Below are positions 1 to 21,915 of a stretch of 64,000 nt of DNA, in pieces. Source of the stretch: Candidatus Poribacteria bacterium (GTDB taxonomy: Bacteria; Poribacteria; WGA-4E; WGA-3G). Position 1 is the stretch's first letter. Each line of letters starts with the position of its first letter. Made by a program: the position numbers and the translations under genes. Where the stretch lies: positions 64,001 through 128,000 of the forward strand of contig CBDBFU010000009.1 in assembly GCA_965205025.1 (NCBI GenBank), in the 5' to 3' direction. The notes beneath the pieces were generated by a model. It was given only the letters and a program-made list of their open reading frames with translations. It made no database searches and was not told the DNA's origin.

Positions 1-1719
1 TTTGGGACTGTCCGATTGTTTTTGTTGGAAGATAATATGTTCATTATTATCGGTAGTATTCCATAATCGCACTGTATTATCTAATCTTCCACTGGCGAGG
101 CGCGTGCCATCAGGTGAAAATGCCAAGGATACGACGGGGTTCCGCTTGCGGTTTAAATAATATGGATCCTGAATCTTCTTTTGAGGTCCTGTAAGTGTAG
201 ACACCTTTTTGCCAGTCTTTGAATTCCACAATTCAAGTATTCCGTTGTCTTCTCCTATCGCAACTTTATTGTGCGTGAGTGCATAGACTGCACTGGGAAG
301 TGGCTCCAGATCCGGACGGTTTTCAATCTTCTTGACATCACTCATACCGGTTTCGATATCTATCCAACAGATAGTGTCTCCTGATTTATTCAGAACAACA
401 AGTGTTTTGCTGTCTTTAGAGAACCAAAACACAGATGCAGCAGGTAGAGCATCGTGTAATGCCACTTCTTGACCTGTAGCTATCTCCCACAACTGGAGTC
501 CTGTTTCGTAGCGGGTGCCGCCAGCCCTACTATTGGGATCACCTCCACCATTTACGAGGAAACGTCCATCTGGTGAGATTGCAAGTGATTCACATCTTCC
601 CGGTAATAGCGAAGTTTCTTTGCCAGTCTCCGCATCATACAACCACACTCCTATATCACTCCCAACAGCGAGATGATTACCATCTGGAGAAAATTGCATA
701 GCGCGAATACTCCCTTTTCCTAAACGTGTTTTCGCCTTTTCAGGTAATGCCCATTGTCTATAATCTTCTGCTATTTCATCTGTTTGCGTCTCTGCAATTA
801 CTGCAGCGACATCAGGTTGCTTTTCAGGATTATTGTCTTTATTCTGGGCATTGACACTCCTAATTTGAAGTCGCACATTTGGCTTAGATTCTAAGTTTGC
901 GATTATTGGAGCATCAACAATCTCAATAGACATCTCTGCATTTGCATCTAAACTATAAGGTTTCTGAAAACGCGCCAAGTATTGATGGTTTCCAAAACCA
1001 AGTATAAGTAATACAACTGCTAACGTAGAGGCTGCAACTGTCCATGGAAATAAAGGTTTACTACTGGTGGGTGTTGAAACTTTAGTACGCGAAATCTCAC
1101 CCATGATAGTTTCTGTTAGATTCGGGGATATTTGGAAATTATCTAATGCCTCCCTTATGACCGGTTCTTCTTTCTGTAAACGCTGTTGCGCACGGTGAAG
1201 TCGACTTTTAACGGTATTGGCAGAAACACCTAAAAACGCACCAATCTCTTTACACGACATATCACCAAAATAGTGAAGTGTCATAACAGTCCGTTCACTT
1301 TCCTTGAGTTTCGCAAGCAGTTTTTGAACAACATCGCGTTTTGCTTGTCCAGACATACGCTCGTTTTCTTCAACAACGTATTCGGAGTACGCTGTTTTTT
1401 CTAACTGCTCCTTGTCTGCCTGGTCCAGATGATCCAATGATTGTGTCTGCAAACGCTTTTTTCGCAGCCATGAACTACAGCTGTTCGCTGCAATTACATA
1501 GAGCCAACTCGCAAACTGTTGAGGCTCCTTTAGGGTTGTCAATCGCTTGTATGCCTTCAAGAATGTATCCTGCGTAATCTCCTCAGCGATATGAAAATCT
1601 CCGATTTTTCGCCACGCAAGCGCGTGAACCTGCTTCTGGTATTTTCTCACAAGCACGGAAAAAGCGTCATCATCGCCTGCAAGGACGCGTTGAATAAGCT
1701 TAACATCGTCGTTCTTCAT
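1..1719 (-). CDS. ECF sigma-70 factor fused to TM helix and WD40 repeats (3' end runs off window)
   Basis: Not in ORF track (open at the edge). ATG at 1719 with GAGGTG RBS; reads MKNDDVKLIQRVLAGDDDAF..., sigma4 GVSANTVKSRLHRAQQRL, WD40 LAFSPDGTRLASG..VRLW. Frame checked at both ends and mid-gene. Paralog of 2930..5929. Confidence 0.9.
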   Translation of the reverse strand, partial: MKNDDVKLIQRVLAGDDDAFSVLVRKYQKQVHALAWRKIGDFHIAEEITQDTFLKAYKRLTTLKEPQQFASWLYVIAANSCSSWLRKKRLQTQSLDHLDQADKEQLEKTAYSEYVVEENERMSGQAKRDVVQKLLAKLKESERTVMTLHYFGDMSCKEIGAFLGVSANTVKSRLHRAQQRLQKEEPVIREALDNFQISPNLTETIMGEISRTKVSTPTSSKPLFPWTVAASTLAVVLLILGFGNHQYLARFQKPYSLDANAEMSIEIVDAPIIANLESKPNVRLQIRSVNAQNKDNNPEKQPDVAAVIAETQTDEIAEDYRQWALPEKAKTRLGKGSIRAMQFSPDGNHLAVGSDIGVWLYDAETGKETSLLPGRCESLAISPDGRFLVNGGGDPNSRAGGTRYETGLQLWEIATGQEVALHDALPAASVFWFSKDSKTLVVLNKSGDTICWIDIETGMSDVKKIENRPDLEPLPSAVYALTHNKVAIGEDNGILELWNSKTGKKVSTLTGPQKKIQDPYYLNRKRNPVVSLAFSPDGTRLASGRLDNTVRLWNTTDNNEHIIFQQKQSDSPK

Positions 1720-11505: not shown

Positions 11506-14500
11506 TTATTCTTCAAGTTGTATGATCTCTTCAGGTACCTGGATTTCATCAAGATCTGATTCTTCAATACCATCTTTGGAAACTTCCAGCTCCAGCCAAC
11601 TTGAGAATCCAGTACCTGCCGGAATTAATCGTCCAAGGATGACGTTTTCCTTCAGACCTGTAAGGTAATCGGTCTGTCCTTCAACAGCAGCATCTGTAAG
11701 AACTTTCGTTGACTGCTGGAAACTTGCAGCAGAAATGAAACTATCAGTACTTAAAGCTGCTTTACTAATACTCTGTAGGAGTGGTTCACCTGTTGCAGGT
11801 GTACCACCTTCATCTGCTACACGTCTATTTTCAGCATGGAACCTACGTCGACTAACCTCATCGTTAGCATAAAATCTGGTATCTCCAATCGTAAGAATAC
11901 GGATTTTCTGTAGCATTTGTCGGACAATTACTTCGACGTGTTTATCATTGATGATATTCTTACCGTAGACAGTCTGAACTTCATCAACAAGATATGTCCA
12001 TACTGCCTCTTCACCTTCAAGTGAAACTCCGTTGATATTTGCTCTACCGATACTAAGTATATCGTGTGGATTCAGATATCCATCCGTTAAGGGTTGTCCA
12101 GCTTCGACAATGTCACCAGCATCAACACGTCGTTTTTCATCGGGGATCGAGTAAAGGCGACTTTTGGCTGCATCATCAACAATCCGATACTGTGGAACAC
12201 CAGCTTTTTGACCCGTTAGCTGCAATTCCCCAGCAATCTCGGCGATTTCAGCTGCATCTTCACGTTTTGGACGTCGTGCTTCAAAAAGCTCAGTCACCCG
12301 TGGTATCCCTACGACAATGTCAAGGTTCGTAGTTTTCTCGTGTAATTCTGCTAACCCGTGTTGTGCATTCACCTTTTCCCCATCTTCAACAGAAACAGAA
12401 TATCCGGCTGGGATAAGGTGTGAAACGCGTCCTCCACCTTCAACGTCAATATCAATCCTGAAGGTTTCAATCAACTCATCAACATCAACACCACCATACT
12501 GTTCTATGGCTCTCTCAAATTCCCAATCGTTTAACTCTTGGCCAACAGTAAGTGTACAGTTTGGATGAATTACCTTTGTAATTTCATAGGTGTTTTTTGA
12601 GGTTAGTGCTGATTTAGCCTTGTAATCAGCATCACTTAAAATTTCATCTTTAGTAACCTCAGATCCAGAGTCGTTAACTGCCGTGACTTTATACACGCGA
12701 TCAGTATCAAAACCCTTATAAAGACGTTGTGCCTTCTTGTATTCATTCTCATCAATTTCCTGTTGTGGGACAAGTGCACAATCTTCATGATGAACAGCAA
12801 GGATCAAATAAAAACGTTGGATCTCAGGCAATGGTGTTTCTGTGTCTCTATGGTGTTTGACGAGAGCTTTGTGATCTGTCTCAGTCAATACTTCCTCTGT
12901 ATCAGCTCCTTCAGGGGTATACTTGTAAAGTTTCTCAAAATCAAAGCCTTTATAGCTTCTTCTGAATCGATTGGATTCAGACTGAGTAATAACCTCATCA
13001 ACAGCTACAGGAAAATCAGGATGATGAATAGCAGAAACTTTATAAAGCCGTTCAACCTCAAATGCTCCTTCGTTCTTAGTAATGTTAACTTCAAATCCAG
13101 GAAATTCCTTAAGAACAGCCTTTTTCTCATTCTCGGTGAGGAGCGTATCGGTTTCTAACTTACAATTTGGATGATACACAGAGGTTATACGATATTTAAG
13201 ACGTTCAGCAGAGAATCCACCGAATTTATCTTTGAGGGAATCATAGTTGTCTTGTTCAATCAATTCACCAGGTTTGAGCGGACATTCACTATGTGATATT
13301 TCTGATACACGATACAGTTCATTACTTAAAAGCGATACTTCAAACGCCTTTTCATTTAGGAATCTATCTCTATATTCCGACTCAGATAATTGTTGTCCGA
13401 CAGTCAGATCAACCCCATCAGATACTTCTGTAACTGTGCGTACTGGATCCCCGAGTTCAAGATGATATTGACTTTCCTCTTCAGGGGTTAACAAGTGTCC
13501 TTCCTTAAATGGACAACTTGTATGGGTAATAGTCTGAATTTCATATCTCATCTCAGCGTTAAGGGTGTTCTGTTTCCGTAAGTATTCACTTTCGGTGAGG
13601 ATATCACCCGATGTGGTTCGATATACCCATTTTCCATCGAAAGGTCGAATCTCAGTTTTCCATTTTTCAGCTTCAGTCTCAGTCACTAATGTACCCTCCT
13701 TCAGAGAACTTTCAGGGTGCATTACCCGTATCACAGGATACTGAGGTTCGGAACAACGGAATAGAGCAAATCGATGTAAACAGGCATTATACTCTTGATC
13801 TGTAAGATACTGTCCTTCCTGTAAGGCAAATCCTTCCCCACTATTAGCCTCAATTACATCTGGACGATTTACGGCTTCAATTACCCGTGTAATGGGTACC
13901 ACCTCAAAACCAGGATAACGCTCCTTGTTCTCCTCATGCTGCTTAATAGTAAGTAGTTCATTCGGTTGGAGTTTACAGTCAGGATGTTCAACTGTCTTCA
14001 CTTTATAGTTTGCTTGGTCAAGATGATCAGCAACTTTTTGAACAATCCAGAGTCCACCTTCTTCACGGACTGTCCTCCCAGGTATAAAATCACGAAAGCG
14101 AACAACACCAGATGCTTTAGCAGGGATCTTCCGGGCAAGACGTTCACTCACATCTTCAACCACACCACCCGTATGAAATGTTCGCATTGTTAACTGTGTT
14201 CCTGGTTCCCCGATTGATTGTGCAGCAATAATTCCGATTGCTTCACCAACATTAACCATTTGTCCTGATGTTAAATCAGAACCGTAACAATGAGCACAAG
14301 ATCCCTTTTCGGTCTCACAGGTAAGTATAGATCTAACACGAACACTGGAGACTTCAGCATCTTCTATTATTTGCGCCATTTGAGGTGTAATCATTGTATC
14401 ACTTTCGACAAGAACTTCATCAGTAGTAGGATGAACTACATCCTCAACTGCCACACGACCACTGATTTTAAATCCTATTGATCCGGCACTCGTAGTGAAT

Positions 14501-17109
14501 TTTTGGATACCATGAACCGTTCCGCAATTTTCCTCTGTTATCATTACATCTTGTGCCACATCAACGAGTTTACGGGTGAGATAACCAGATGCAGCGGTTT
14601 TCATTGCTGTATCAACTAACCCTTTACGGGAGCCGTAGGTAGAAGTAAAGTAATCCAGTACATCTAATCCTTCTCTATAAGAAGATTCAATCGGAGTTGA
14701 CAGGATTTCACCGCTCTGCTTGGATTTCAATCCAACAATAGCACTGATTTGAATAAATGGATTCTTACGTGCTCTGGCACCACTATCCGCCATAAGATGC
14801 ACTGGACTAAATCCTTCCACATCCTTACCTTGTTCAACCAGATAACTTTCCGTGGCAGGAAGTTGACCAAATAAATCCTCCTCAATCTTTATAGTAGCAT
14901 CGAACCAAATACGAATTTTTTCATTCTCTAATTCTTCTGGTTCGAGGTTCTCCTGTTTATAGAGTTTATCAATAGCATTCCGGGCATCAGTCAGTATCTC
15001 GGTCTTATGATCAGGTACAAGGTAATCCTTAATACCTGGTGAAATTCCGCTTCGAGTTGCATACTCAAAACTAAGTTTCTGTAACCGATCTAATAATGAA
15101 ACAGTTTCTGAAGTTCCAAGTTCGTTAAAACAACGTTGAACAAGATCCGATAACCTTCTACTCCGTGCTTCCTCATTAAAGAATGGTATTTCAAGTCCGG
15201 TGATTTCATCTTTCCATTTTAGTGATGCTGTACCATTCGTATGGGGGAGTACTTCGTTAAATATGACACGACCAACAGTTGTTAATATAGGTTCACTATT
15301 TCCTTCAAAGAAGAGAAGAATTGAATCGTGTAATTTTATCGTTCCACATCCATGTGCATGTGTCACCTCATCAACAGATGTAAACCGTCGTTTTGCCCAT
15401 TCCTCGTTTTCTAATGAGGAGAAGATTTTCTTTGATTCAGAACCATTAGTAAGTTCCGTATAAGCAGAATGTAGTAATTCTGCACGCTCAAGATGTTCTG
15501 GAAGTTGTTTGGTAAGAAAACTTGCCCCCAATATCATATCAAGTTCAGGTACTGTAATAGGTTCACCATGGGAAGGTTTCAGTATATTACTACTACTAAG
15601 TAACAACATCTTTGCTTCAGTTCGTGCTTCAATTGACAGTGGTACATGTACAGCCATCTGATCACCATCAAAATCAGCATTAAAAGCTTTACAAACAAGA
15701 GGAGGAATCCGGATAGATTTGCCTTCAACAAGAACAGGCATGAATGCCTGAATACCCAGACGATGGAGTGTTGGAGGACGGTTCAGTAACACAGGATGAT
15801 CCGCAATAACTTCTTCTAATGCTTCCCACACCGGGGAGTCGGGGGTGACGTGTTCAGTCATGTTCTTCCCACGTTTAATAGTTTGAACATGTCCGTCTGC
15901 TAAGAGTTTCTCAATAATGAAGGGTTTAAAGAGTTCTACTGCCATTAACTTTGGAATACCACATTGATGCAACTCTAATTCAGGTCCAACAACAATAACA
16001 CTTCTACCAGAATAGTCAACACGTTTCCCAAGTAAGTTCTGACGGAATCGACCAACTTTACCTTTAAGTATGTCCGATAGTGACTTGAGGGCACGCTTAC
16101 CAGGACCAGTGACGCGACGACCATGTCTCCCATTATCCAAAAACGCATCAACGGATTCTTGTAACATCCGTTTCTCATTCCGTAGAATAACCTCCGGTGA
16201 ACGTAAGTCAATCAGTTTTTGTAATCGGTTATTCCTATTAATCACACGACGATACAAGTCATTGAGATCACTTGTAGCGAATCTTCCACCTTCGAGTGAA
16301 ACTAATGGGCGTAGGTCAGGACTTATGACAGGTAGTACGTCAAGAATCATCCACTCAGGCTGCATCTCTGCTTTATCAAAACCTGCTACCATTTTTAATT
16401 GTTTTGAGAGTTTTACTTTCTTCTGATGGCTTGAGGTCTCTTCAATCTCTTGAGTAAATTTCTCTACATCCTCAGGTAAGTCAATCTTCTGAAGAAGTTC
16501 TTGAATTGCCTCTGCTCCTGTAGCTGCTTTGAATGTATCAGGATGTTTTTGCATTTTAGCATTCATCTCTTGTTCTGTGAGAATATCTTTATGTTCCAAT
16601 TCACAACTATCATCCATAACTTCTGTTACGATAAATGCTTCAAAGTATAAAACACGTTCAACTTGGCGAGAAGCAAGTTCAAGGAATGTCCCAAGTCGTG
16701 AAGGAATACCTTTGAAAAACCATATATGTGAAACTGGGGTGGCAAGTTTGATATAACCAAGCCGTTCTCGTCGAACTTGTGATTTAGTCACCTCAACCCC
16801 ACATTGATCACAAATTAGTCCTTTATGCTTAATTCGCTTGTATTTACCACAACTACACTCAAAATCTTTTTGTGGACCGAAGGTCGCTTCACAAAATAAA
16901 CCTTGGTGTTCTGGTCGGAAACTTCGATAATTAATTGTCTCTGCCTTCTTAATTTCACCACAATCACATGTACCTTTTTCAGGACAAGACCATGTTTCAC
17001 TTGCTGGATTCCGTCGTTTACAGGATGTGCGTTTTGCCCAATCTCTAATTGTTTCGGGTGATGCGATGCTTATAGAGATACGATTAAAACGGTTTTCTTT
17101 GTCTGCCAT
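11506..17109 (-). CDS. rpoC: RNA polymerase beta' subunit (1867 aa, large trigger-loop insertion)
   Basis: NADFDGD, Zn-finger CSCGKYK..CDQC, GEPGTQLTMRTFH, GLKENVILGRLIPAGTG. Confidence 0.98.
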   Translation of the reverse strand: MADKENRFNRISISIASPETIRDWAKRTSCKRRNPASETWSCPEKGTCDCGEIKKAETINYRSFRPEHQGLFCEATFGPQKDFECSCGKYKRIKHKGLICDQCGVEVTKSQVRRERLGYIKLATPVSHIWFFKGIPSRLGTFLELASRQVERVLYFEAFIVTEVMDDSCELEHKDILTEQEMNAKMQKHPDTFKAATGAEAIQELLQKIDLPEDVEKFTQEIEETSSHQKKVKLSKQLKMVAGFDKAEMQPEWMILDVLPVISPDLRPLVSLEGGRFATSDLNDLYRRVINRNNRLQKLIDLRSPEVILRNEKRMLQESVDAFLDNGRHGRRVTGPGKRALKSLSDILKGKVGRFRQNLLGKRVDYSGRSVIVVGPELELHQCGIPKLMAVELFKPFIIEKLLADGHVQTIKRGKNMTEHVTPDSPVWEALEEVIADHPVLLNRPPTLHRLGIQAFMPVLVEGKSIRIPPLVCKAFNADFDGDQMAVHVPLSIEARTEAKMLLLSSSNILKPSHGEPITVPELDMILGASFLTKQLPEHLERAELLHSAYTELTNGSESKKIFSSLENEEWAKRRFTSVDEVTHAHGCGTIKLHDSILLFFEGNSEPILTTVGRVIFNEVLPHTNGTASLKWKDEITGLEIPFFNEEARSRRLSDLVQRCFNELGTSETVSLLDRLQKLSFEYATRSGISPGIKDYLVPDHKTEILTDARNAIDKLYKQENLEPEELENEKIRIWFDATIKIEEDLFGQLPATESYLVEQGKDVEGFSPVHLMADSGARARKNPFIQISAIVGLKSKQSGEILSTPIESSYREGLDVLDYFTSTYGSRKGLVDTAMKTAASGYLTRKLVDVAQDVMITEENCGTVHGIQKFTTSAGSIGFKISGRVAVEDVVHPTTDEVLVESDTMITPQMAQIIEDAEVSSVRVRSILTCETEKGSCAHCYGSDLTSGQMVNVGEAIGIIAAQSIGEPGTQLTMRTFHTGGVVEDVSERLARKIPAKASGVVRFRDFIPGRTVREEGGLWIVQKVADHLDQANYKVKTVEHPDCKLQPNELLTIKQHEENKERYPGFEVVPITRVIEAVNRPDVIEANSGEGFALQEGQYLTDQEYNACLHRFALFRCSEPQYPVIRVMHPESSLKEGTLVTETEAEKWKTEIRPFDGKWVYRTTSGDILTESEYLRKQNTLNAEMRYEIQTITHTSCPFKEGHLLTPEEESQYHLELGDPVRTVTEVSDGVDLTVGQQLSESEYRDRFLNEKAFEVSLLSNELYRVSEISHSECPLKPGELIEQDNYDSLKDKFGGFSAERLKYRITSVYHPNCKLETDTLLTENEKKAVLKEFPGFEVNITKNEGAFEVERLYKVSAIHHPDFPVAVDEVITQSESNRFRRSYKGFDFEKLYKYTPEGADTEEVLTETDHKALVKHHRDTETPLPEIQRFYLILAVHHEDCALVPQQEIDENEYKKAQRLYKGFDTDRVYKVTAVNDSGSEVTKDEILSDADYKAKSALTSKNTYEITKVIHPNCTLTVGQELNDWEFERAIEQYGGVDVDELIETFRIDIDVEGGGRVSHLIPAGYSVSVEDGEKVNAQHGLAELHEKTTNLDIVVGIPRVTELFEARRPKREDAAEIAEIAGELQLTGQKAGVPQYRIVDDAAKSRLYSIPDEKRRVDAGDIVEAGQPLTDGYLNPHDILSIGRANINGVSLEGEEAVWTYLVDEVQTVYGKNIINDKHVEVIVRQMLQKIRILTIGDTRFYANDEVSRRRFHAENRRVADEGGTPATGEPLLQSISKAALSTDSFISAASFQQSTKVLTDAAVEGQTDYLTGLKENVILGRLIPAGTGFSSWLELEVSKDGIEESDLDEIQVPEEIIQLEE

Positions 17110-17209: not shown

Positions 17210-20200
17210 CTATTCGGTATCGTCGGTATCCCAAGTAAGTTTAAGAGGGGGTTCATCATCAACAGGTTCCATCGTATCTACCGTATGTAAGATTGGTAGA
17301 CCCGACTCATGAAGAGCTGCTTGGATTGAATCAAGCTCTGACGGGTTACCTTCAGATAATTCAACATTTAATCCAAGACTTTGAAGTTCTCTAACTAACA
17401 CATTGAAGGACTCTGGTGTACCGGGTTTCAATGGGCTTTGACCTTTGACAATTGATTCGTAGATTTTAGTCCTACCCTTAACATCATCCGATTTGATGGT
17501 CAACATTTCTTGAAGGGTATGTGCAGCACCGTATGCTTCTAATGCCCATACTTCCATTTCACCAAGACGTTGTCCTCCGTGTTGTGCTTTCCCACCGAGG
17601 GGTTGTTGTGTTACTAAGGAGTATGGACCCGTCGAACGGGCATGCATCTTATCTGCAACAAGGTGGTTCAGTTTCAGGAAATAGACATAACCAACTGTTA
17701 CTTCCTGTCCAAACGCGTCACCTGTACGTCCATCGTATAGAACACTTTTACCAGTTTTCTTGACGCTCTCAAGTAATTCTGTATCTTCTAACATCTTAAA
17801 CACTTCTGCTTCTGTAGCCCCATCAAATACAGGAGACGCCACATAATAACCGAGTTCTTTACATGCTAATCCTAAATGAATTTCAAGGATTTGACCAACA
17901 TTCATGCGTGATGGAACTCCGAGAGGATTCAAGACAATATCAACAGGTGTGCCATCAGGAAGATATGGCATATCTTCTTCAGGTAGAATCTTGGCAACAA
18001 CACCTTTATTTCCGTATCGTCCAGCCATTTTATCACCGATGGATATTGGACGTCTGCTTGCAACATATACTTTTACGAGTTTCAAAACACCGGGTTTTAG
18101 TTCTTCACCGGAGGTAAGTTTTTCTAATGCCTCCTCTTTTTCATCCGTATATGCTTTTTCCCGTCCGACAGCGAGTTCTTGCAGACTTTTAATATAATCA
18201 ACAGTTTCAGTATCTGTAATCTGAAGCGTTTCAAGTTGCTTTTGTGATAACCCCTCAAGAAAATCACGTGTCAGTATATCTCCAGCCTCTAATTGCTGAG
18301 GTGAGTCAGATTTTTCGGTATCTTCAGGTTCATCATCATAAAGGATAGTTGTAGGATACGCCAACTCTTTGTTTAGCAAAGAGTCGCGCATCTCCTCTGT
18401 TAAACGATCTGAAATCTGTTGACGCTGTTCTTCCCAGGTCTGTTCAATTTGCTTACGGAGTGAATCTTGCCGTAGGGCAGTTCTGTCACTATTGGGTGTC
18501 GCTTGTCGTGAAAAGACTTTCACATCAATTACAACACCTTCGACACCCGGGCGTGTGTAGGCAGAAGCATCTTTTACTTCTTTTGATTTTTCACCAAATA
18601 TAGCACGTAGAAGTTTTTCTTCGGGTCCTGTCTCACTTTCACCTTTAGGAGAGATTTTACCTACCAGGATACTGCCCGTTCCTACAACACTACCTATCCT
18701 TATAATACCTTCGTCATCAAGCTGTGCCAGACTCCGTGCTGACATGTTAGGAATATCTCTGGTAATCTCTTCATCACCCATTTTTGTTTGCCTGGCCGCG
18801 ACTTCAAATTCTTCAATATGGATAGAGGTGAATGTATCCTGCTTTATAAGAGATTCACTGATAAGTATTGAATCCTCAAAGTTATGTCCACCCCACGGCA
18901 TATAAGCACATAAGATATTCCGTCCAAGTGCCAGTTCCCCACCTTCCGTTGCTGTGCCATCTGCAATGACATCTCCAGTTTCAACAACATCTCCAATATT
19001 CACACGTGGACGCTGATGAATACAAGTACCACTATTACTACGTTTGAAGTTTTTTAGTTTATAAACATCATAACCCATTTCACTGAAAGCATGTTCACCT
19101 TCTTCAACATGGAGTGCTTGTCCAGTTCGGATGAGTATTTCTTCTGCGTCAACGCTTGAAACAACACCACCCCGATGTGCGATAACCATTGCATTCGCAT
19201 CACGTGCAGCACGATGTTCCATTCCTGTACCCACCCATGGTGCTTCAGGGCTGATCAAGGGTACAGCTTGTCTTTGGTGGTTAGCACCCATCAATGCACG
19301 GTTAGCATCTTCGTGTTCAAGAAATGGAACAAGAGCAGCGGAAACACCAACGATCTGTTGCGGGGCAATACCTACATAATCTATCTCTTTCAGATCTCGT
19401 TCAAGCACCTCTTCACCCTTACGACTGCGAACAGGAACGTCTTTTTTACGGGCAGGGATAGCGTCAGCCGGTGCAATATGGAACTTGTCCTCAGCATCTG
19501 CTGTTAGATACTCAACATTTTGAGTAATTTTACCATTGCTAACTGTACGATACGGTGTTTCTAAAAAACCGTAAGGATTAACTCTGGCAAACGTTGCTAA
19601 TGAAACTATAAGGCCGATTGATGGACCTTCAGGGGTTTCTAATGGACACACGCGACCATAATGGGTACGATGTACATCTCGAACCGCCGCAGTAGCGCGA
19701 TCTCGATGTAGTCCTCCAGGACCAATAGCTGAAATTCTTCGTTTATGCGTGAGTTCATCTAATGGGTTTATCTGTTGCATAAACTGGGAAAGTTGATTTG
19801 ATCCGAAAAACTCACGAAGCGCACTCATGAGCGGCTTTGGGTTTACTAAGTTTTTGGGATTCTTTAACTGGGCATCGGCAGTTGTGCTCAGTTTCTCACG
19901 TGCTGCCCGACGCATTTGTAACATAGCAATACGAAATTGGTTTTCAAGAAGTTCTCCAATAACACGAACTCGACGATTTCCAAGATGATCTAAATCATCA
20001 ACTTCTTTATGTCCGTTTCGAATATGCATCAGGTGTTGTAATGTGGCAGCAATATCTTCTCGACGAAGAACCCGATTTTCTTCATCAGGCAACCCTTCGG
20101 ATTCTTCCTGATATACTTCTAAATCACCCAGTTGTGAGTTGAGTTTGTATCTACCAACCGTACCTAAATCGTAACGTGCACCATCAAAAAATAATCGTTC

Positions 20201-21232
20201 AATACATGCCGATGCGGCTTCTCGTGTCGGGGCATCACCTGGGCGTAGGGTGCGAAAAATTTCAAGTAATGCACCTTCTTGCAATGTACCTCCACCATAC
20301 GCTTTGACAGTGTCACGGGACAATGTATTTCGTAAATACCGTAGTTCTTGTTCGTCGACTTCTACCAATACTTCAACCTCTGAGATTTTAGCATCGATGA
20401 GACGATCATATTCAATCTCAGACAACTTAGTGTTAGCCTCAAGTAATACTTCACCCGAATTTGAATCAACGATGGGTTCAACGATTACACGGCCTATAAC
20501 ATCTGTAGTCAACTTAACATTTTCTGTATCACCAAATAGTTTGAGGATTTCTGCATCAGTTTCCCATCCAAGCGCTCTTAAAAGTACTGTGGCTAAGATT
20601 TTCTTTTTTCTATCTAAACGTACGTGAATACAATCTTTTGAATCAAATTCAAACTCTACCCAAGCACCACGATAAGGTATAATCTGCCCTGTTGGAAGTT
20701 TTTGTACACTGGGAGCAGATTTATCAAGAAATATAACACCTGGTGATCGATGTAATTGATTTACGATAACACGTTCGGATCCATTGATTATAAATGTACC
20801 GTTCTCAGTCATCAATGGAATATCCCCAAGATACACTTCTGATTCAGTAATATCTAAAACCCGTGTTTGACCAGTGTCTTCATCTTTTTCTCGTTCAACA
20901 CACATCAGCTTGGCTTGAAGCCTAACTTGATAATTTAATCCACGTGCTTGACAATCAGATAGATCATGCGTGGGTGGACTGAGTGCGTAACTAACGAACT
21001 CAAGACTCGTTGTATCTTTAAAATCATAAATTGGAAAAACTTCTTTGAAGAGTGCTTGCAACCCTTTTGTTTCACGTTCACTTTCTGCAACATCACGCTG
21101 CAAAAATGCAGCATAGGAGCGTTTTTGGGTTTCAATTAAATCAGGTAGGTCAAGAATTGATGGGGTTTTGGCAAAGGAGATGCGCTTACGGAGAGCAGCC
21201 GGACTTCCATTATTTTTAGTAGTAGCTGGCAT
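17210..21232 (-). CDS. rpoB: RNA polymerase beta subunit
   Basis: SQLSQFM, GDKMAGRYGNKG, GQRLGEMEVWALEAYGAA. Confidence 0.98.
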   Translation of the reverse strand: MPATTKNNGSPAALRKRISFAKTPSILDLPDLIETQKRSYAAFLQRDVAESERETKGLQALFKEVFPIYDFKDTTSLEFVSYALSPPTHDLSDCQARGLNYQVRLQAKLMCVEREKDEDTGQTRVLDITESEVYLGDIPLMTENGTFIINGSERVIVNQLHRSPGVIFLDKSAPSVQKLPTGQIIPYRGAWVEFEFDSKDCIHVRLDRKKKILATVLLRALGWETDAEILKLFGDTENVKLTTDVIGRVIVEPIVDSNSGEVLLEANTKLSEIEYDRLIDAKISEVEVLVEVDEQELRYLRNTLSRDTVKAYGGGTLQEGALLEIFRTLRPGDAPTREAASACIERLFFDGARYDLGTVGRYKLNSQLGDLEVYQEESEGLPDEENRVLRREDIAATLQHLMHIRNGHKEVDDLDHLGNRRVRVIGELLENQFRIAMLQMRRAAREKLSTTADAQLKNPKNLVNPKPLMSALREFFGSNQLSQFMQQINPLDELTHKRRISAIGPGGLHRDRATAAVRDVHRTHYGRVCPLETPEGPSIGLIVSLATFARVNPYGFLETPYRTVSNGKITQNVEYLTADAEDKFHIAPADAIPARKKDVPVRSRKGEEVLERDLKEIDYVGIAPQQIVGVSAALVPFLEHEDANRALMGANHQRQAVPLISPEAPWVGTGMEHRAARDANAMVIAHRGGVVSSVDAEEILIRTGQALHVEEGEHAFSEMGYDVYKLKNFKRSNSGTCIHQRPRVNIGDVVETGDVIADGTATEGGELALGRNILCAYMPWGGHNFEDSILISESLIKQDTFTSIHIEEFEVAARQTKMGDEEITRDIPNMSARSLAQLDDEGIIRIGSVVGTGSILVGKISPKGESETGPEEKLLRAIFGEKSKEVKDASAYTRPGVEGVVIDVKVFSRQATPNSDRTALRQDSLRKQIEQTWEEQRQQISDRLTEEMRDSLLNKELAYPTTILYDDEPEDTEKSDSPQQLEAGDILTRDFLEGLSQKQLETLQITDTETVDYIKSLQELAVGREKAYTDEKEEALEKLTSGEELKPGVLKLVKVYVASRRPISIGDKMAGRYGNKGVVAKILPEEDMPYLPDGTPVDIVLNPLGVPSRMNVGQILEIHLGLACKELGYYVASPVFDGATEAEVFKMLEDTELLESVKKTGKSVLYDGRTGDAFGQEVTVGYVYFLKLNHLVADKMHARSTGPYSLVTQQPLGGKAQHGGQRLGEMEVWALEAYGAAHTLQEMLTIKSDDVKGRTKIYESIVKGQSPLKPGTPESFNVLVRELQSLGLNVELSEGNPSELDSIQAALHESGLPILHTVDTMEPVDDEPPLKLTWDTDDTE

Positions 21233-21915
21233 AAAGTTCACCTTGTGCAGATTGCAGATGGGTTGAAGGTTTTACTATCGGACTTTCGTAACAACTAATT
21301 GACAGTATACCGATCGGATAACAATATTCACGACAACAGATACTGATTTCTACTGAATGCGTTTTATTCAATGCTGTTGTATGAGTTTCTAACATACTTT
21401 GATTTATAGGAATGGTGACTCGTTTTGAATTGTGAAATGGATGGCGTATTCGTTCTCACATCCAATAATTGTGACTCTACTTACCCTAAGATATTAAGGA
21501 TACGGATCACTATATACAGATGTCTATTGATAGGAAGACACGCTATTGACGGTAACATGTTCAAGGCGCGAAAAGACACTTGACTACACACCACTTTTAA
21601 ATAACATGCAAGTCAAGTACTGGATATTCTTTGACACTACCGCAATCAATTATAGACATCCCTTGTTTAGATACAAAAACAGTTGCCAATATATCAAAGA
21701 AGGTGTATACTTCACTAAACTAAAGCGACTCTAACTTCAAGGCTAATACTTATTTACCTTCTTAAGGCGTAACGTAACATTATACATTAATATCTATAGA
21801 AATGTCAAGGAAATTGTGGATAATTGTGTCTAATTTACATTACTTATATTTTAGATGTTCATTTTCAATAAAGGTTTAAAGCATTCAATTAAAATACCTT
21901 ACTGTAACTTACATT

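Follow-up and report, generated by a model that had tools for sequence, protein, structure and literature searches.

Insertions in the trigger loop of RNA polymerase's beta' subunit, termed SI3 or beta'i6, are described as consisting of two to five sandwich-barrel hybrid motif (SBHM) repeats, or eight in cyanobacteria (10.1101/2021.01.27.428476 and PMC10802570, in their passages on these insertions), and the account of the trigger-loop domain (uD5) in the main text of PMC11515920 lists insertions of the HABAS/SBHM type only. The beta'i6 of E. coli, as outlined in the relevant part of PMC2939025, has 188 aa, is formed by two tandem SBHMs and is highly acidic; it is reported to move with the folding of the trigger loop (10.1101/2021.01.27.428476). 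The cyanobacterial Si3, with 645 aa and eight SBHMs, is called the largest known in the corresponding passages of PMC10802570, according to which a small loop-to-helix change results in a large swing and the base of the insertion shields the Gre/DksA site. The present analysis concerns the rpoC gene found in a 64,000-nucleotide stretch of DNA from Candidatus Poribacteria bacterium (assembly GCA_965205025.1, contig CBDBFU010000009.1, positions 64,001 to 128,000), the whole of which is called here the window. The trigger loop of the encoded beta' subunit carries an insertion of 614 aa, and it is highly probable that this housekeeping protein contains a rebuilt SI3-type insertion, in which one SBHM serves as the anchor and 13 diverged tandem copies of the module sLC are nested within it.

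The sLC ("small left claw", CATH 3.30.60.280) comprises the homologous pair beta'-bD2 and beta'-bD7 (Alvarez-Carreno et al. 2024, PMC11515920); every bacterial beta' possesses one copy within the clamp (bD2) and another close to its C-terminus (bD7). The main text of that study reports lineage-specific inserts of the sLC, BEAN and HABAS types in the beta' domains bD2, bD4, bD5 and bD7, and describes BEAN, which occurs in beta-i4 / beta-i5, as a domain of about 90-100 aa formed by two antiparallel brackets and, in beta, marked by a TGD/E motif. Unlike these sLC inserts, the one studied here is a 13-copy array situated in the trigger loop; neither such an array nor the Poribacteria are mentioned in that main text.

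The gene and the position of the insertion are defined by the following features:

Positions 11506..17109, minus strand: rpoC, coding for the RNA polymerase beta' subunit of 1867 aa (list of open reading frames, translation, Pfam Rpb1 domains 1-5).
Positions 14164..14187, minus strand: MRTFHTGG (aa 975-982), with which the N-terminal arm of the trigger loop ends (motif in the translation).
Positions 12322..14163, minus strand: the complete trigger-loop insertion (aa 983-1596, 614 aa), at the site known for SI3 / beta'i6.
Positions 12295..12321, minus strand: DIVVGIPRV (aa 1597-1605), with which the C-terminal arm of the trigger loop starts (motif in the translation).

This rpoC is the sole beta' gene detected in the source genome (G000, 95.5% complete), and its Pfam Rpb1 domain 5, aa 814-1745, runs across the insertion. 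A preliminary description, made from the letters of the window alone, had placed about 610 aa at 12325-14160 between MRTFHTGG and DIVVGIPRV; the measured length is 614 aa, at 12322..14163, and the two flanking motifs bear out the trigger-loop location, so that the insertion occupies the site characteristic of SI3 / beta'i6. With regard to known families, the 614 aa yielded only a sub-threshold RPOC_hybrid match in Pfam at aa 1563-1622 (E 0.07), no phmmer match among the PDB sequences at E <= 10 and no usable match in the ESM Atlas search. An intein or a nuclease cargo within the insertion of the window was ruled out, there being no such Pfam domain.

The ends of the insertion are assigned to the two halves of one SBHM:

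Positions 14026..14142, minus strand: predicted N-terminal half of the SBHM, aa about 990-1028 (strands at model residues 30-59; VIA-align).
Positions 12322..12474, minus strand: predicted C-terminal half of the SBHM, aa 1546-1596 (model strands 586-625; VIA-align; BLASTP).

The assignment comes from an AlphaFold2 model of rpoC aa 965-1615 (651 aa), prepared with an alignment of 33 sequences (mean pLDDT 80.8, pTM 0.51), which presents 13 successive units flanked on both sides by groups of beta-strands. In its comparison with 48,161 PDB chains by VIA-align, E. coli SI3 occupied the first two places (4iqz_A, Z 12.8, root-mean-square deviation (rmsd) 1.8 Å, 80 aa; 2auk_A, Z 12.5, rmsd 2.8 Å, 88 aa, chain 82..189), followed by the cyanobacterial SI3-tail (8h02_A, Z 10.2). 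The model range aligned to E. coli SI3, 28..626, covers both halves, as anticipated in the preliminary description, which had spoken of an SBHM-like motif split by a repeat array. Judged by the model, the insertion thus possesses the SBHM (HABAS) fold of SI3 / beta'i6, but this accounts for about 97 of the 614 aa, the other 517 aa (84%) being the 13 units that match sLC and not SBHM, and with its single predicted SBHM the insertion does not fit the description of SI3 insertions as SBHM repeats only. Compared with E. coli SI3 (PDB 2AUK, 4IQZ), the anchoring SBHM superimposes (Z 12.5-12.8) and both insertions are acidic, the array in the window having a net charge of -37 (isoelectric point 4.9); the E. 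coli insertion is, however, one of 188 aa with two SBHMs, whereas that of the window counts 614 aa, with a single SBHM and 13 nested units making up 517 aa.

Concerning the sister families of the same order, their beta' subunits have 1411-1445 aa (in one case 1691 aa), with trigger-loop inserts of 197-216 aa (in one case 373 aa) that read like two SBHMs. The C-terminal SBHM half of the window aligns to the end of the sister-family insert (BLASTP, E 2e-9), and the N-terminal strand to the start of the second sister SBHM (E 0.006), as well as to the start of the first one (E 5e-4, in an alignment that includes the conserved MRTFHTGG). These alignments are read as the probable retention of one SBHM, corresponding to the second SBHM of the E. 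coli-type SI3, together with the loss of about 100 aa of the first one.

The array lying between the two SBHM halves, with its 13 units (U1-U13), is arranged as follows:

Positions 12475..14025, minus strand: the 13 sLC-like units, together an array of 517 aa, aa 1029-1545 (hidden Markov models (HMMs), model, hhalign).
Positions 13894..14013, minus strand: U1, aa 1033-1072, with HPDC.
Positions 13759..13887, minus strand: U2, aa 1075-1117, no H-x-x-C.
Positions 13627..13746, minus strand: U3, aa 1122-1161, with HPES.
Positions 13552..13632, minus strand: U4, aa 1160-1186, a short, degenerate unit (hhalign; the model has a strand and a helix here).
Positions 13444..13551, minus strand: U5, aa 1187-1222, with HTSC.
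Positions 13330..13443, minus strand: U6, aa 1223-1260, no H-x-x-C.
Positions 13204..13320, minus strand: U7, aa 1264-1302, with HSEC.
Positions 13081..13200, minus strand: U8, aa 1304-1343, with HPNC, the unit nearest to the clamp segment (hhalign 93%).
Positions 12934..13053, minus strand: U9, aa 1353-1392, with HPDF, superimposing on beta' bD7 of solved polymerases.
Positions 12820..12933, minus strand: U10, aa 1393-1430, degenerate.
Positions 12700..12816, minus strand: U11, aa 1432-1470, with HEDC.
Positions 12601..12699, minus strand: U12, aa 1471-1503, no H-x-x-C.
Positions 12475..12594, minus strand: U13, aa 1506-1545, with HPNC.

In the AlphaFold2 model all 13 units have the order strand-(short strand)-helix and a length of about 27-43 aa, the last strand of one unit often continuing into the first strand of the next one, and the pLDDT by block along the array is mostly 80-90. 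The count of about 13 units at 12490..14007, put forward in the preliminary description, agrees with the 13 of the model, placed at aa 1033-1545 (window 12475..14013). By sequence, the eight H-x-x-[C/S/F] units are evident; the unit HMM, seeded on these eight and iterated only on the trigger-loop matches of 74 beta' homologues (473 unique units), recognised 11 of the 13 units in the window and 10-11 units per protein across the homologues, in both cases at conditional E < 0.01. When profiles of the 13 units (58 sequences each) were compared all against all by hhalign, 11 of them were mutually related, mostly with a probability above 90%, and the remaining U4 and U10 gave 75% to each other and 89% and 78%, respectively, to U12. 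The MAFFT consensus of 12 units, xxYxVxxVxHxxCxLxxGxxLTxxExxxxxxxxxGFxxxx, matches the consensus proposed earlier. The units with and without H-x-x-C largely alternate, and this order could represent a two-unit super-repeat.

The divergence of the units is considerable, their identity to U8 being 21-38%. A self-BLAST of beta' returned the identity match only, Tandem Repeats Finder gave 0 rows for the DNA, and the DNA repeat search found just four two-copy families of 16-22 nt. A recent tandem duplication at the DNA level was therefore ruled out, the units repeating only as protein, and the lack of repeats at the DNA level means that the array is old. Based on the above results, the insertion with its repeat array, as it was first observed, is confirmed as real.

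The module of beta' to which the units are related by sequence is present as a single copy in the N-terminal part of the protein:

Positions 16522..16641, minus strand: beta'-bD2 of the clamp (clamp segment, aa 157-196), present once and the likely source of the array (profile searches; residue ranges of PMC11515920, Table 2).

The likeness had already been noticed in the preliminary description, with the segment at about 16525-16636, and it was located at aa 159-195 (window about 16525-16635). A profile trained on the trigger-loop units only was applied to 60 beta' homologues of standard length and to 300 shuffled non-insert sequences. It matched the clamp segment (aa about 161-190) in all 60 homologues with 0.7-16.6 bits, at a conditional E < 0.1 in 58, < 0.01 in 32 and < 0.001 in 16 of them, and nothing else in beta' outside the clamp segment and the insert at conditional E < 0.1; the top score over the 300 shuffles was 3.4 bits. 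The hhalign comparison of the unit profile with the clamp-segment profile gave 96.2% (E 2.1e-9, 33 columns). An independent test is provided by the beta' subunits of five members of sister families, which are array-free and stood outside the profile training: the same profile scored 35.0, 32.8, 27.9, 26.6 and 12.3 bits on their clamp segments (five of five), which share the pattern D-P-x-C-P-L...L-L-T-E-E-E-Y, e.g. VLEVSDPNCPLKVKQLLTEEEYNEHLSQFP. Among the PDB sequences, no match of the 12-unit profile was individually significant (best E 0.11), although 13 of the 43 weak matches listed were beta' subunits of several phyla, all at residues 141-175. The units accordingly show the profile relationship expected of sLC modules and are, by these comparisons, homologous to bD2 in particular. 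The copying within the gene followed by amplification, suggested from the beginning, finds independent support in the scores of the array-free sister clamp segments.

As far as the fold is concerned, units U6-U9 were modelled separately by AlphaFold2 (175 aa, pLDDT 73.2, pTM 0.33) and compared with the 48,161 chains. The best match was the beta' of M. tuberculosis (6edt_D 1163..1209, Z 5.3, rmsd 1.4 Å, 42 aa), followed by the beta' of a cyanobacterium (8syi_Z, Z 5.1) and of the tobacco plastid (8w9z_c, Z 5.0), and, in fourth place, by the crystal of the M. tuberculosis clamp insert (5uh7_B, Z 4.1), the next, unrelated chain having Z 3.6. After re-alignment of the Foldseek candidates, all 50 matches listed were RNA polymerase chains at one site (Z 4.9-5.8). 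Matches were obtained only for U9 and, less strongly, for U8. The superposition of U9 extends over 40-44 aa, with an rmsd of mostly 1.2-1.8 Å, and falls on beta' residues 1260-1308 in E. coli, 1376-1423 in T. thermophilus, 1161-1209 in M. tuberculosis and 1074-1122 in B. subtilis. By the residue ranges of Table 2 in PMC11515920, this site is beta'-bD7, the clamp segment being beta'-bD2. Since the domain has only about 45 aa, the Z-scores are low, and weight was placed on the consistency of the matches and not on the height of the score. The units thus represent sLC modules, sharing in the model the fold of bD7/bD2 and in sequence the pattern of bD2 only. The earlier interpretation is supported in part: the likeness to the clamp has stood, whereas the units have no fold of their own but, by the model, the known one of sLC (beta'-bD2/bD7, CATH 3.30.60.280).

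Related units were seen at other places as well. In the beta subunits P0076 and P0077 of relatives, five to six tandem units lie at aa 234-470, at the start of the beta-i4 region. Six congeners (P0016, P0019, P0025, P0030, P0031 and P0033) have an extra beta' insertion of about 380-560 aa at the site of rpoC aa 895-901 (window about 14407-14427), holding 2-6 further unit copies with a 61-aa period (KITEVNNLECSLKVG...); for these congeners, Pfam gives PF18741 in P0016, P0019, P0031 and P0033 and, in two of these, PF04480 too. Three other congeners, P0013, P0028 and P0067, carry a different insertion, one of about 360-460 aa for which no Pfam family is recorded, at the site of rpoC aa 710-731 (window about 14917-14982). 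Two to three units were also found at aa 403-515 of the TPR-repeat protein P0088 (938 aa; 36 and 31 bits), so the module occurs outside RNA polymerase, too.

The module BBM2 (beta-beta' module 2) reportedly goes back to Iyer, Koonin and Aravind in 2004. Like BBM2/BEAN, the present unit is a small alpha/beta module found in tandem in lineage-specific inserts of RNA polymerase, and its profile matches the beta-i4-site arrays of two relatives. The units might be viewed as BBM2/BEAN-type modules taken from beta (beta-i4) or from a shared mobile pool of RNA polymerase modules, their likeness to bD2 reflecting distant ancestry only. The best units of the P0076 and P0077 arrays indeed score 22-42 bits, versus 11-16 bits typical of the family's clamp segment; they are situated at the start of the beta-i4 region, which is stated in part of PMC2939025 to bear between one and six copies of BBM2, in different lineages, and the unit is present also at a third beta' site of some congeners and in the TPR protein. 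On the other hand, the rpoB of the window contains no unit (best unit-profile score -2.0 bits), the canonical beta-i4 stretch of P0076 reaches only 10.7 bits with the unit profile, and four of the five array-free sister clamp segments score 26.6-35.0 bits and have the above-mentioned pattern in common. The beta arrays, moreover, were seen in two proteins only, while 97 of the family's 99 genomes have the one in the trigger loop, and they look secondary for this reason. With BEAN (CATH 3.90.105.10), the comparison was one of single units only; these matched sLC, and no beta-i4 or beta-i5 (BEAN) structure was among the matches listed for the four-unit model. An origin from beta or from a shared pool is considered improbable, and the descent of the units from bD2 is preferred.

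The array is restricted to one family. The insertion was detected in 98 of the 151 phylum genomes sampled, that of the window included; 97 of the 99 genomes from the window's family have it, against none of the 51 from eight other families; the named close homologues belong to 'Candidatus Poribacteria bacterium'. Because the same architecture is found in those 97 of 99 genomes, an assembly artefact was rejected. Among 1.84 billion representative proteins, only 17 match the insertion at E <= 0.001, six of which were classified: two full-length beta' subunits (P0078, P0080), the beta subunit P0076, the beta' fragments P0081 and P0089 and the TPR protein P0088, with P0081 being assigned by the unit pattern, P0089 by Pfam and the others by Pfam or unit scans. 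P0093 contains units and no Pfam family, and the remaining ten matches are mostly short fragments.

The array is under purifying selection, with a dN/dS of about 0.1 (0.08 and 0.10 against two congeners, the flanking beta' in the same loci having 0.10 and 0.06). The length of the insertion is fixed as well: from motif to motif it amounts to 617-620 aa in 63 and to 617-639 aa in all of the 69 closer homologues (P0001-P0069), down to about 60% identity. In more distant family members the same distance ranges from 631 to 1349 aa and 9-16 units can be recognised; two of these members, P0074 and P0080, have trigger-loop inserts of 1349 and 970 aa with an in-frame PF18741 (REase_MTES_1575). The 1349 aa of P0074 are about twice the cyanobacterial Si3, the 614 aa of the window being slightly below its 645 aa.

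These distant members, with their variable length and restriction-endonuclease-like domain, could speak for the array as tolerated ballast, i.e. for an SBHM loop permissive for selfish or neutral insertions and for repeats without function, and so could the insertions of 350-560 aa that some congeners carry at two other beta' sites. Such a view is, nevertheless, very unlikely with respect to the constancy just described, to a dN/dS that in one of the two comparisons is not above that of the flanking beta', and to the fact that every unit has its own invariant residues over 58 sequences; Pfam, moreover, shows neither a nuclease nor any other foreign domain in the window's insertion, and along the array the confidence of the model is good (pLDDT by block mostly 80-90).

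Another function that may be read from the sequence is that of a metal-binding (Zn) or redox-sensitive module, in which the H-x-x-C of six units would pair into His2Cys2 sites and so rigidify or regulate the arm. Six units have the H-x-x-C and two more the His alone; the conservation of the His and Cys, retained by 49-58 of 58 sequences, is well above the mean identity of the array of about 65-70%, and there are further conserved His residues at aa 1029, 1362, 1420 and 1440. In the clamp segment the His position is taken by Asp, the His thus being derived in the array. One unit, however, provides only two ligands and five units lack both residues, while the Cys is present, beside Asp, already in the clamp segments of the sister families, which fits a role in the structural core or in a turn. 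Furthermore, there was no match to a zinc-binding family in Pfam, and AlphaFold2 folds the units confidently without metal. The metal or redox role is considered unlikely, and the sLC array as such, copied from bD2, is retained as the reading of the insertion.

Concerning its origin, the bD2 of the lineage would at the start already have had the D-P-x-C-P-L...L-L-T-E-E-E-Y pattern seen in the sister families. In the family's ancestor, a copy of it may then have been placed into the SBHM loop and amplified in tandem, with loss of the first SBHM during the rebuilding, and later copies would have reached other sites of RNA polymerase in some members, namely beta-i4 (P0076/P0077) and beta' aa 895-901 (the six congeners). 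As both ends of the insertion are fixed to the trigger-loop arms, the appendage would have to move with each folding of the loop into the trigger helices. By analogy with E. coli SI3 and cyanobacterial Si3, the acidic appendage would swing with the trigger loop and may tune its folding, i.e. catalysis and pausing, and by its size it could reach or cover other surfaces, such as the rim of the secondary channel, the jaw and the lobe. The acidity of the 517-aa array makes DNA binding unlikely. The most likely function, in analogy to the described insertions, would be the tuning of the trigger loop combined with steric or protein-protein roles on the surface of the enzyme.

The factors acting through the secondary channel deserve attention in this respect. 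The Gre N-domain PF03449 was found in 0 of the 151 phylum genomes (control: 9 of 14 known genomes), and neither the GreA/GreB C-domain PF01272 nor the DksA/TraR zinc finger PF01258 was found in the source genome (controls: 9 and 6 of 14). The lineage is apparently one without secondary-channel factors, like cyanobacteria. Unlike E. coli SI3 with its interplay with Gre and DksA, the insertion has no such factor to meet among the domains found in its genome, and the remark of the preliminary description on Gre access therefore has no object here. Gre is missing also in the 51 genomes of the array-free families, so that its absence is not a consequence of the array, and Gre loss as an array-specific explanation was ruled out by its N-domain being absent from all 151 genomes, with the array or without. 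With the cyanobacterial and plastid Si3 (PDB 8EMB, 8SYI), in the extent to which it is covered by the passages cited above, the insertion shares the giant size at the trigger loop, the nesting of domains in domains and the Gre/DksA-free lineage; it differs in having sLC-like units instead of eight SBHMs and in an unsplit beta', and no sequence relation to the cyanobacterial Si3 was detected, as documented by the 17 matches in 1.84 billion representatives.

A more far-reaching proposal would see in the arm a 13-fold reiterated bD2 surface, with a derived and invariant His-x-x-Cys in every other unit, acting as a regulated device and not as a passive spacer, either a metal- or redox-sensitive rod gating by its stiffness the folding of the trigger loop or a multivalent decoy or landing platform for bD2 binders, and in the trigger loop itself a hotspot for modules and nucleases. 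This is regarded as unlikely. If it were true, a platform for bD2 binders would tie the catalytic cycle to a signal in a Gre/DksA-free lineage, and the family's trigger loop would be a hotspot for modules self-copied within RNA polymerase and for nuclease domains, with inserts up to about twice the largest known.

Several observations weigh against the interpretation of the insertion as an SBHM-anchored array of bD2-derived sLC copies. Both structures are predictions, their pTM reaching no more than 0.51 (complete insertion) and 0.33 (units U6-U9). Foldseek found no match in the PDB at E <= 0.001 for either the 651-aa or the 175-aa model; the elongated multi-domain model is unsuited to Foldseek, and the SBHM and sLC matches came from VIA-align. 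The Z-scores of the unit fold (4.9-5.8, none of at least 8) are in the range where common arrangements may match. It should also be pointed out that the best match by structure is bD7 and that by sequence is bD2, the putative bD7 of the window's beta' giving 0-2% hhalign probability with any unit, and that low scores (0.7-16.6 bits, with only 16 of 60 at conditional E < 0.001) were obtained for the clamp segment in the very family that bears the array. The 22-42 bits on the beta arrays of the two relatives leave the direction of copying among the RNA polymerase sites unsettled and, finally, the lack of Gre shows no relation to the array (PF03449 in 0 of 51 genomes of array-free families).

As for the surroundings of the gene, rpoC follows rpoB (17210..21241, minus strand, 1343 aa, six Pfam Rpb2 domains). 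The usual rplJ-rplL are absent upstream of rpoB, where the next open reading frames (region 21242-21915) lie on the opposite strand and code for DUF4416 and peptidase S58; the genes around rpoB-rpoC are unrelated housekeeping ones (DUF4416, peptidase S58, fumarase, anthranilate synthase; Pfam). Within rpoC, an extra Cys-rich stretch, SCKRRNPASETWSCPEKGTCDCGEIKK, precedes the usual beta' zinc ribbon at aa 29-54 (window 16948-17025); its four Cys residues are at least 90% conserved in the alignment of 33 sequences, and the stretch may be an additional metal site. In three genomes of the sister families (G015, G010 and G003), a second open reading frame of 1042-1096 aa weakly matches the double-psi beta-barrel region of beta' (aa 361-534, E 1e-14 to 3e-17) and may encode an RNA polymerase-like paralogue.

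In the main-text literature, no description of a trigger-loop insert from Poribacteria was found, supplementary data and older catalogues of inserts being outside this scope, and the passages of PMC3444138 on rpoC and RNA polymerase do not mention the insert. Within that main-text literature, an array of clamp modules has not been described as a building plan for this site.

The insertion would mean that the catalytic loop can carry a block that is not SBHM, but the enzyme's own clamp module, in 13 copies nested in an SBHM. It may serve as a defined target for the structural biology of RNA polymerase and extends the catalogue of lineage-specific inserts of this enzyme to an uncultured sponge-associated lineage. 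Being present in one family and not found in the sister families, it would offer a datable case of intragenic domain copying. For the organism itself, in whose genome this is the only rpoC found, it would represent a natural experiment on the mass that a trigger loop is able to carry along in each cycle of nucleotide addition.

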